From IMG/VR virus record IMGVR_UViG_3300028364_000013: DNA of 64,000 nucleotides; one strand, given 5' to 3'. How positions within the stretch are numbered: position 1 is the first letter of the stretch; each line of letters opens with the position of its first letter. The translations under genes were made by a program, and so were the position numbers. This DNA comes from a virus (lineage: Duplodnaviria > Caudoviricetes). The notes under the pieces were generated by a model. The model did no database searches. It saw nothing but the letters and a program-made list of their open reading frames with translations, and was not told the DNA's origin. This document shows, in pieces, positions 59,728 through 59,877 of this stretch.

Positions 59728-59762
59728 AAAAAAAACCCTAATTCAAAAAGAACCAGGGTTTC
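59728..59762 (-). terminator. Intrinsic terminator (attenuator) ahead of the Ser/Arg/Trp cluster
   Basis: AAACCCTGGTTC-TTTTT-GAATTAGGGTTT plus T-run. Confidence 0.85.
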
Positions 59763-59784
59763 AAATATTTTTATAACAGTATCG

Positions 59785-59877
59785 TTACATAACATTTTGA
59801 CATACCAGTGTTCTTTCCGTAGCTCTATTCGAACTCGAACTCCATCTGGACCATCTATTTGTTATTACTGTTTTCAT
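59785..59877 (-). CDS. Putative leader peptide: MKTVITNRWSRWSSSSNRATERTLVCQNVM
   Basis: 30 aa; core RWSRWSSSS; downstream 5 Ser, 2-3 Arg and 1 Trp tRNAs. Confidence 0.85.
   Translation of the reverse strand: MKTVITNRWSRWSSSSNRATERTLVCQNVM

Follow-up and report, generated by a model that had tools for sequence, protein, structure and literature searches.

The window, i.e., the whole 64,000-nucleotide stretch of DNA analyzed here, is included in a single contig of 195,333 bp with a G+C content of 33.9%, and its DNA is contained in lake-water and salt-lake metagenomes. Approximately 40-47 tRNA genes, placed on one strand throughout, are interspersed with HNH and GIY-YIG endonuclease ORFs and with a GOLLD RNA, and the source genome looks like that of a large uncultured phage. 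This full-length GOLLD RNA (window 33995-34421, minus strand), which covers model positions 1-416 of Rfam RF02032 with a score of 169 bits, has aberrant tRNA-like genes upstream of it (35741-35997) and a terminator after it (33997-33945). The locus studied in this work occupies the minus strand, on which all features described below are located unless otherwise indicated, and comprises, in the order of transcription, a promoter, a short lysine-rich ORF, a leader ORF, an intrinsic terminator, a group of tRNA genes rich in Ser, Arg and Trp acceptors, and a second terminator.

The operon promoter (60041..60072) is constituted by TTTG (60072-60069), a 20-nt spacer and TAGATTTG (60048-60041), within a block of about 50 nt that is common to five tRNA operons (units at 4744, 29999, 44400, 778 and 60048). 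This block (TTTG, ~20 nt, TAnnTTTG) putatively corresponds to the Bacteroidota -33/-7 consensus, TTTG / TAnnTTTG. The promoter core TAnnTTTGCGTA occurs at ten places, always on the tRNA-coding strand: six copies are located in the window (778, 4744, 29999, 44400, 52036 and 60048, minus strand) and four in the genome outside the window (70609, 157832, 170448 and 172688, plus strand), most of them embedded in a block of ~50 nt with the arrangement AAAAAAGATTTG..GAAACA..TAnnTTTGCGTA. Five of these copies head tRNA operons; the copy at 52036 drives a 141-aa ORF, and that at genome position 70609 drives a 370-aa ORF rather than a leader. The ten copies probably represent one temporal class of promoters. 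A search of viral contigs with the promoter motif returned six exact matches, all of them within coding sequence, and these were discarded as chance matches.

Between the promoter and the leader lies a 38-aa, Lys-rich ORF beginning MSVNSTHANLEALEGW... (59905..60021), for which the Pfam search gave no match. It is maintained at 35-43 aa (..LEALEGW.KQLK..) in the five related loci examined (e.g., L007:13240-13359; L010:13082-13207), and could encode a small protein or, alternatively, could serve as a ribosome-loading device ahead of the leader. The box TATTTAGAAA (59882..59891) is found 4 nt upstream of the leader ATG, and exact copies of it precede the leaders at 59877, 44332, 29936 and 4689; the box may belong to an initiation region or represent a weak -7-like element.

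The original prediction placed the leader at the head of a Ser/Arg/Trp tRNA cluster, and ten tRNA genes are indeed found downstream on the same strand, five for Ser, one for Cys, two for Arg, one odd and one for Trp. The first, a tRNA-Ser(UGA) (59625..59713), starts 14 nt after the U-tract of the terminator; ARAGORN finds it only under relaxed settings, and a Ser(UGA) gene occupies the corresponding position in relatives. It is followed by a 55-aa ORF inside the operon (59444..59611), without match in the Pfam search, and by a block of six tRNA genes (58796..59438) composed of Ser(UGA) (59438-59349), Ser(GCU) (59254-59167), Cys(GCA) (59144-59071), a second Ser(GCU) (59062-58971), Ser(GGA) (58963-58876) and Arg(UCU) (58870-58796). 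Next come a small HTH ORF (58699-58547) and an HNH-like ORF (58536-58126), with weak Pfam matches below the curated cut-offs, the pair (58126..58699) probably being an inserted homing endonuclease. Further downstream are an odd tRNA-like gene with anticodon AUC, a long variable arm and an encoded CCA end (58021..58103; 26.8 bits, below the Rfam gathering score), a tRNA-Arg(CCU) (57857..57931), a 165-aa HTH-HNH ORF with weak Pfam matches (57310..57807), and an atypical tRNA-Trp(CCA) with a long variable arm (57199..57277). The operon ends at a strong terminator with a 20-bp stem (57148..57197). The odd AUC gene is itself preceded by a TATTTAGAAA box. Regarding the Trp(CCA) gene, it scores 24 bits in Rfam, under the gathering score of 29; it is nearly identical to the tRNA-Trp of one related contig (L007) and can be aligned with Trp genes from further relatives, with an invariant TCCAA in the anticodon loop. 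Long-extra-arm tRNA-Trp(CCA) genes are conserved in related phages (L007:15258-15337, L012:14990-15075, L014:14708-14793), several of which carry one beside a Trp gene of canonical length.

The leader ORF (59785..59877) consists of 30 codons plus a stop, starts with ATG and encodes the peptide MKTVITNRWSRWSSSSNRATERTLVCQNVM. Codons 8-16 (59856-59830) read AGA TGG TCC AGA TGG AGT TCG AGT TCG, exactly as noted in the original prediction, and specify the run RWSRWSSSS. The 2.6 kb downstream encode a tRNA for each of these nine consecutive codons, with AGA decoded by Arg-UCU, TGG by Trp-CCA, TCC by Ser-GGA, AGT by Ser-GCU and TCG by Ser-UGA. Thus, the run samples the three Ser isoacceptor classes found downstream (GGA, GCU and UGA), as had been claimed, by means of TCC, AGT and TCG; likewise, the sampling of Trp(CCA) by TGG holds, its gene being the atypical one that aligns with the tRNA-Trp(CCA) of relatives. 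The claim that both Arg acceptors are sampled stands for TCT, through AGA, and fails for CCT, as AGG is found nowhere in the leader. The sensing zone also has no codons for Cys or for the odd tRNA, the single Cys codon of the leader being located outside of it. When the whole leader is considered, with no hand-picked zone, the operon's own tRNAs read 12 of 29 codons, compared with a background of 12.5% in the long ORFs of the genome (binomial p ~1e-4).

The start of the peptide, MKTVI, is common to this leader and to the leader of a Gln unit (517-437), whose 15-nt start is the only other match in the window at ≤1 mismatch (one mismatch). The original prediction had regarded this as a sign of common ancestry; the shared start was recovered, and together with the shared TATTTAGAAA box it is compatible with common ancestry as well as with a shared constraint on initiation.

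Downstream of the leader codon run, the transcript displays an intrinsic terminator with a 13-bp stem, a 5-nt loop and a U8 tract (59728..59762), located between the promoter and the tRNA genes. This attenuator and the operon-end terminator are the only terminator-like sites of the minus strand in 57000-60200. Because the attenuator ends 14 nt before the first tRNA, which leaves no space for a later promoter, the tRNAs of the operon can be made only by read-through. Pairing of AAAGAAC with GTTCTTT as an antiterminator had been proposed, and folding recovers this helix and lengthens it to GAAAGAAC:GUUCUUUU plus GGU:ACC. In co-transcriptional folds, the 5' strand of the antiterminator, GAAAGAAC...GGU, corresponds to codons 21-25 (59804..59817), and the 3' strand, ACC...GUUCUUUU (59746..59759), overlaps the 5' arm and the loop of the terminator. 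The transcript cut so as to contain the antiterminator has a folding energy of -17.8 kcal/mol versus -7.5 +/- 2.5 kcal/mol in dinucleotide shuffles, none of 300 shuffles being as low; the count of arm pairings taken alone beats only 85% of shuffles in this unit.

For the switch folds, the transcript was cut before the 3' arm of the terminator, and everything up to the leading edge of the ribosome was masked. Under these co-transcriptional conditions, with the A site at codon 17 or earlier, the 5' arm of the terminator is sequestered (9 of its 13 nt) by GAAAGAAC..GGU; it is freed two to four codons past codon 17, and is free from about codon 21. Conversely, equilibrium folds of the full leader, with a masked ribosome or with none, always keep the terminator, and equilibrium folding was consequently rejected as a view of the switch, which only the truncated co-transcriptional folds reveal; it follows that the switch would have to be kinetic, as in classical attenuators. 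In the search for a trp-type anti-antiterminator (1:2) hairpin, which would give termination without translation, the ribosome-free fold turned out to be the antiterminator, and the truncated transcript lacking a ribosome still forms the antiterminator in five of the six units described below. Since the antiterminator is the ribosome-free default, stalls on the N-terminal K/T/V/I/N codons would also give read-through, making the specificity quantitative rather than absolute; as in classical leaders, specificity stems, according to this analysis, from codon multiplicity. A small hairpin over codons 14-20 is conserved, and it could be a pause site.

Further, five sister units with the same order and geometry of parts were identified in the window, with operons for Gln; Phe/Val/Leu/Arg; Asn/Thr/Lys; Pro/Asp/Tyr/Gly/Met/Ala; and Cys. 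The leader of the Gln unit contains QQQQQQQ and precedes Gln tRNAs; a leader MKNINNILRQLSLQFLQLLFVF.. is followed by Phe, Val, Leu, Arg, Leu and Leu tRNAs; a leader ..NIHTTINNTICNKK.. by Asn, Thr and Lys tRNAs; and a leader ..PMGYMGAPAADD.. by Pro, Asp, Ala, Tyr, Gly and Met tRNAs. The Cys unit (25476-25647, minus strand) is weaker, and consists of a leader MKTNMTYWRPTSQAIDCGLEGVCPFCKK.. with 3 Cys, a terminator (25528-25476), a 223-aa ORF and two tRNA-Cys. Codons of the own operon are enriched in each of the six leaders (all p<0.05), and when leaders are paired with operons the true assignment ranks first among the 720 permutations. The peptides have no common motif beyond MKT/MKN. Stepping of the ribosome codon by codon covered all units except that for Cys, whose fold was compared with shuffles only; the four sister units so analyzed (Gln, Phe/Val/Leu/Arg, Asn/Thr/Lys and Pro/Asp/Tyr/Gly/Met/Ala) switch two to four codons past the enriched run. 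Across the six units, 0-4% of dinucleotide shuffles are as low in energy as the antiterminator transcripts, the Cys unit also being an outlier, and the 5' strand of the antiterminator always starts ~12-14 nt past the codon run.

The neighboring M41-peptidase gene has many metagenomic homologues, and contigs carrying peptidases with 58-72% identity share the arrangement of promoter, 35-43-aa ORF, leader, terminator and Ser/Arg/Trp cluster. With a pattern scan of metagenome contigs, the number of distinct leader sequences rose to 14, i.e., 13 besides that of the studied phage. All 13 homologues retain the ORF, which is 27-31 codons long and shows in-frame indels, and the peptides of the 14 have a strongly conserved N-terminus, MKTV.TNRWS. 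The Ser/Arg/Trp cluster is present in every homologue with enough downstream sequence; nine homologues have it complete, and in each of these the cluster supplies a tRNA for every one of codons 8 to 16-18. The run, composed only of R, W and S, varies in order and length (RWSRWSSSS, RWSSRWSSR, RWSSRWSRS, RWSSRWSSRR, RWSSRWSSSSR); it is interrupted by an Asn codon in L021 and L023, and by Leu and Asn codons in L022 and L026, contigs that are too short for the full tRNA cluster. Such a run, constant in composition and variable in order, is more easily explained by codon sensing than by a requirement for one particular peptide.

Relatives were sought elsewhere as well. No relative was found among GenBank phages, either by DNA or by the neighboring M41 peptidase protein; viral contigs gave no related loci when searched with a single protein, and none when scanned with the leader pattern. 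A distant peptidase homologue (L015, 44% identity) has no adjoining tRNA cluster. The related loci examined contain no second type of leader unit, hence the agreement between leader content and tRNA set is judged from the six units within the genome only.

When the 14 homologues were folded independently, the antiterminator fell in the same alignment columns, and the five homologues with a readable truncated fold have the same switch point just past the run. On alignment A1, pairing holds for 98.9% of the terminator cells and four pairs are compensatory, a result that none of 500 shuffles equals. For the antiterminator, 89% of cells are paired versus 30-65% with the partner slid, and two pairs show double changes, its covariation score being reached by 32 of 500 shuffles. 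Column 136 of the alignment covaries with both column 71, in the antiterminator, and column 149, in the terminator. The C-terminal half of the leader diverges in peptide sequence while the RNA pairings are kept. The alignment thus gives moderate support to antiterminator covariation; as the homologues are related to one another and not independent, this evidence is moderate rather than decisive.

Every in silico test of the leader-peptide attenuator put forward in the original prediction agreed with it, namely the codon match, the terminator, the mutually exclusive antiterminator, the conserved covarying helices in 14 homologues and the five sister units. We therefore consider it likely, judging from sequence and predicted folds, that the locus is a codon-sensing leader-peptide (ribosome-mediated) transcription attenuator of a phage tRNA operon, such that the phage probably makes the Ser/Arg/Trp tRNAs only when ribosomes read the corresponding codons slowly. 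Transcription would start at the shared Bacteroidota-type promoter (~60040) and proceed through the 38-aa ORF into the 30-codon leader. With Ser-, Arg(AGA)- or Trp-decoding aminoacyl-tRNA in short supply, the ribosome would linger on codons 8-16 (59830..59856), leaving GAAAGAAC..GGU (59817-59804) free to pair with the emerging 5' arm and loop of the terminator; the terminator being blocked, RNA polymerase would read through the ten tRNA genes, ending at 57148. With fast decoding, the ribosome would reach codons 18-30 and cover GAAAGAAC..GGU, so that the 13-bp hairpin with its U8 tract could form and transcription would stop 14 nt before the first tRNA. The design would have two states, in which a free leader or a stalled ribosome gives read-through and a ribosome past the run gives termination; it assumes a tight coupling of transcription and translation in a Bacteroidota-like host. 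We infer translation of the leader, stalling of the ribosome and dependence of read-through on that stalling. Because the products of the operon are the very molecules whose shortage would be sensed, we propose that the unit controls tRNA supply by direct negative feedback. Five other tRNA blocks of the genome would be gated by versions of this module that differ in their codon checklist.

Other explanations for this arrangement were weighed. The locus might carry a constitutively leaky terminator, or an RNA-processing signal, that damps tRNA transcription without any codon sensing, the ORF being kept for some other reason such as an unstructured 5' region or protection from Rho. The terminator is real and conserved, equilibrium folds always favor it, and the covariation of the antiterminator is only moderate, all of which suits such an element; yet we regard it as unlikely, since it leaves unexplained the match of nine codons to the downstream tRNAs together with that of five sister leaders (rank 1 of 720), the conserved composition of a run whose order changes, and the constant gap of ~12-14 nt from the run to the 5' strand of the antiterminator. 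A functional micropeptide, or a nascent-chain arrest peptide in the style of SecM, TnaC or Erm leaders, for which the amino-acid sequence would matter rather than the supply of tRNA, could account for the strongly conserved MKTV.TNRWS of the 14 homologues. However, the run is fixed neither in the order nor in the number of its R, W and S, in-frame indels occur, the C-terminal half loses its peptide sequence while the RNA pairings persist, and the six leaders share only MKT/MKN, yet each matches its own tRNA set, so that we deem this explanation improbable.

A chance ORF in AT-rich DNA upstream of a terminator, with the codon match being a coincidence, is the least probable of these explanations. 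Small ORFs are certainly abundant, there being 684 ATG-started ORFs of 8-45 aa on the same strand of the window; nevertheless, the binomial p of ~1e-4 for the Ser/Arg/Trp leader and of <0.05 in all six units, the conservation of the ORF in 13 homologues and the outlying fold energy relative to shuffles leave hardly any room for it. A further possibility accepts the attenuator and concerns the signal: exactly as in biosynthetic attenuators, uncharged tRNA in an amino-acid-starved host would be sensed, and not how abundant or intact the tRNAs are, with the operon simply going up under starvation. In the trp and his attenuators, it is well established that stalling is the same for a missing or an uncharged tRNA, and a stalling ribosome could not tell the two apart here. 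Extra tRNA, on the other hand, would not relieve a shortage of amino acids, which would make the loop one without benefit, and the phage already has complete isoacceptor sets for the codons being sensed; we assign a very low probability to starvation as the signal, although the sequence evidence is compatible with either signal.

The codon-sensing attenuator that we favor shares with the trpL, hisL, leuL and pheL leaders a small ORF bearing regulatory codons in a run, an intrinsic terminator, and an antiterminator that uses the 5' arm of the terminator; as in those leaders, the choice between the hairpins would depend on the position of the ribosome. Like thrL and the leader of ilvGMEDA (ilvL), it would be multivalent, sensing several amino acids at once. 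In contrast to these biosynthetic leaders, which regulate enzymes, the phage unit would regulate tRNAs, its product being the sensed molecule, and it is phage-borne and present in six parallel copies with different codon lists; unlike trp, it has no evident 1:2 superattenuation. The attenuator of E. coli pheST (pheM leader) is cellular, responds to the level of aminoacyl-tRNA-Phe and controls a synthetase, with a single amino acid sensed. The phage unit is similar to it in being a leader-peptide attenuator with an output in the translation apparatus, and differs in that it would control tRNA genes, involves several amino acids and is viral. T-box riboswitches (RF00230) also have a choice between terminator and antiterminator set by the state of tRNA, with specificity provided by leader codons; however, these bind uncharged tRNA directly, with no ribosome, through a stem I and a conserved T-box sequence, whereas the phage unit has a translatable ORF. 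The RF00230 model (stem I, specifier loop, T-box sequence) gave no match in the window at the gathering score or at E≤1. Unlike known leaders, the phage leader matches none of the Rfam leader families (His_leader, Trp_leader, Thr_leader, Leu_leader and others), with no hit in the window at the gathering score, and only a chance-level rnk_leader match at E≤1 (24.8 bits versus a threshold of 50; E 0.34). A literature search, for which subscription journals were mostly out of reach, returned no description of leader-peptide attenuation of tRNA genes.

The class of mechanism is textbook; the novelty lies in its target (tRNA genes), its carrier (a phage) and its multiplexed design. Phage tRNA genes are usually regarded as passively expressed cargo, and the present findings bear on the tuning of phage tRNA expression and on the sensing of the host tRNA pool by phages. 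If the proposal is true, a ribosome would test the very codons whose tRNAs lie downstream, a logic not known to have been described for any tRNA gene, and the response of the phage would be tied, in a simple and testable way, to damage or shortage of tRNA in the host. Tentatively, and with rather less than even confidence, we suggest that the six attenuators, each with its own codon set and together covering ~17 amino acids, may constitute a codon-resolved tRNA-demand network, in which each would turn on just the block whose tRNAs are scarce and the product would close the feedback loop; such a network could sense and counter the loss of host tRNAs caused, for instance, by anticodon nucleases or by tRNA degradation during infection, and also a mismatch in codon usage. 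The leaders would moreover reveal, in a manner readable from the sequence, how a phage groups its tRNAs into functional blocks, and, as compact and programmable devices that sense how fast particular codons are decoded, they could find use in synthetic biology.

Other features related to tRNA were observed in the genome and in related phages. Additional tRNA-like genes in the window (26106-26398, 28931-29015 and 35897-35997, minus strand) have Rfam matches and are detected by ARAGORN only with relaxed settings, which show inserts in or near the anticodon loop; these could be degenerate copies, intron-containing genes or unusual tRNAs. Furthermore, a tRNA with anticodon CUA, of the amber suppressor type, is conserved (genome 73284-73356, outside the window; L007:7886-7959; L010:7538-7611) and adjoins Ile, Lys and Thr tRNAs and a PTH2-like gene, which hints at TAG read-through or recoding. 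In related phages, a gene for a Ro60/TROVE-domain protein precedes the peptidase and tRNA region by a few kb (L007:1-1426; L008:28-1506; L012:1-833; L013:4304-5698), accompanied by ATP-grasp (R2K), NT5C and RNA-ligase genes, in what looks like an RNA repair or quality-control neighborhood.
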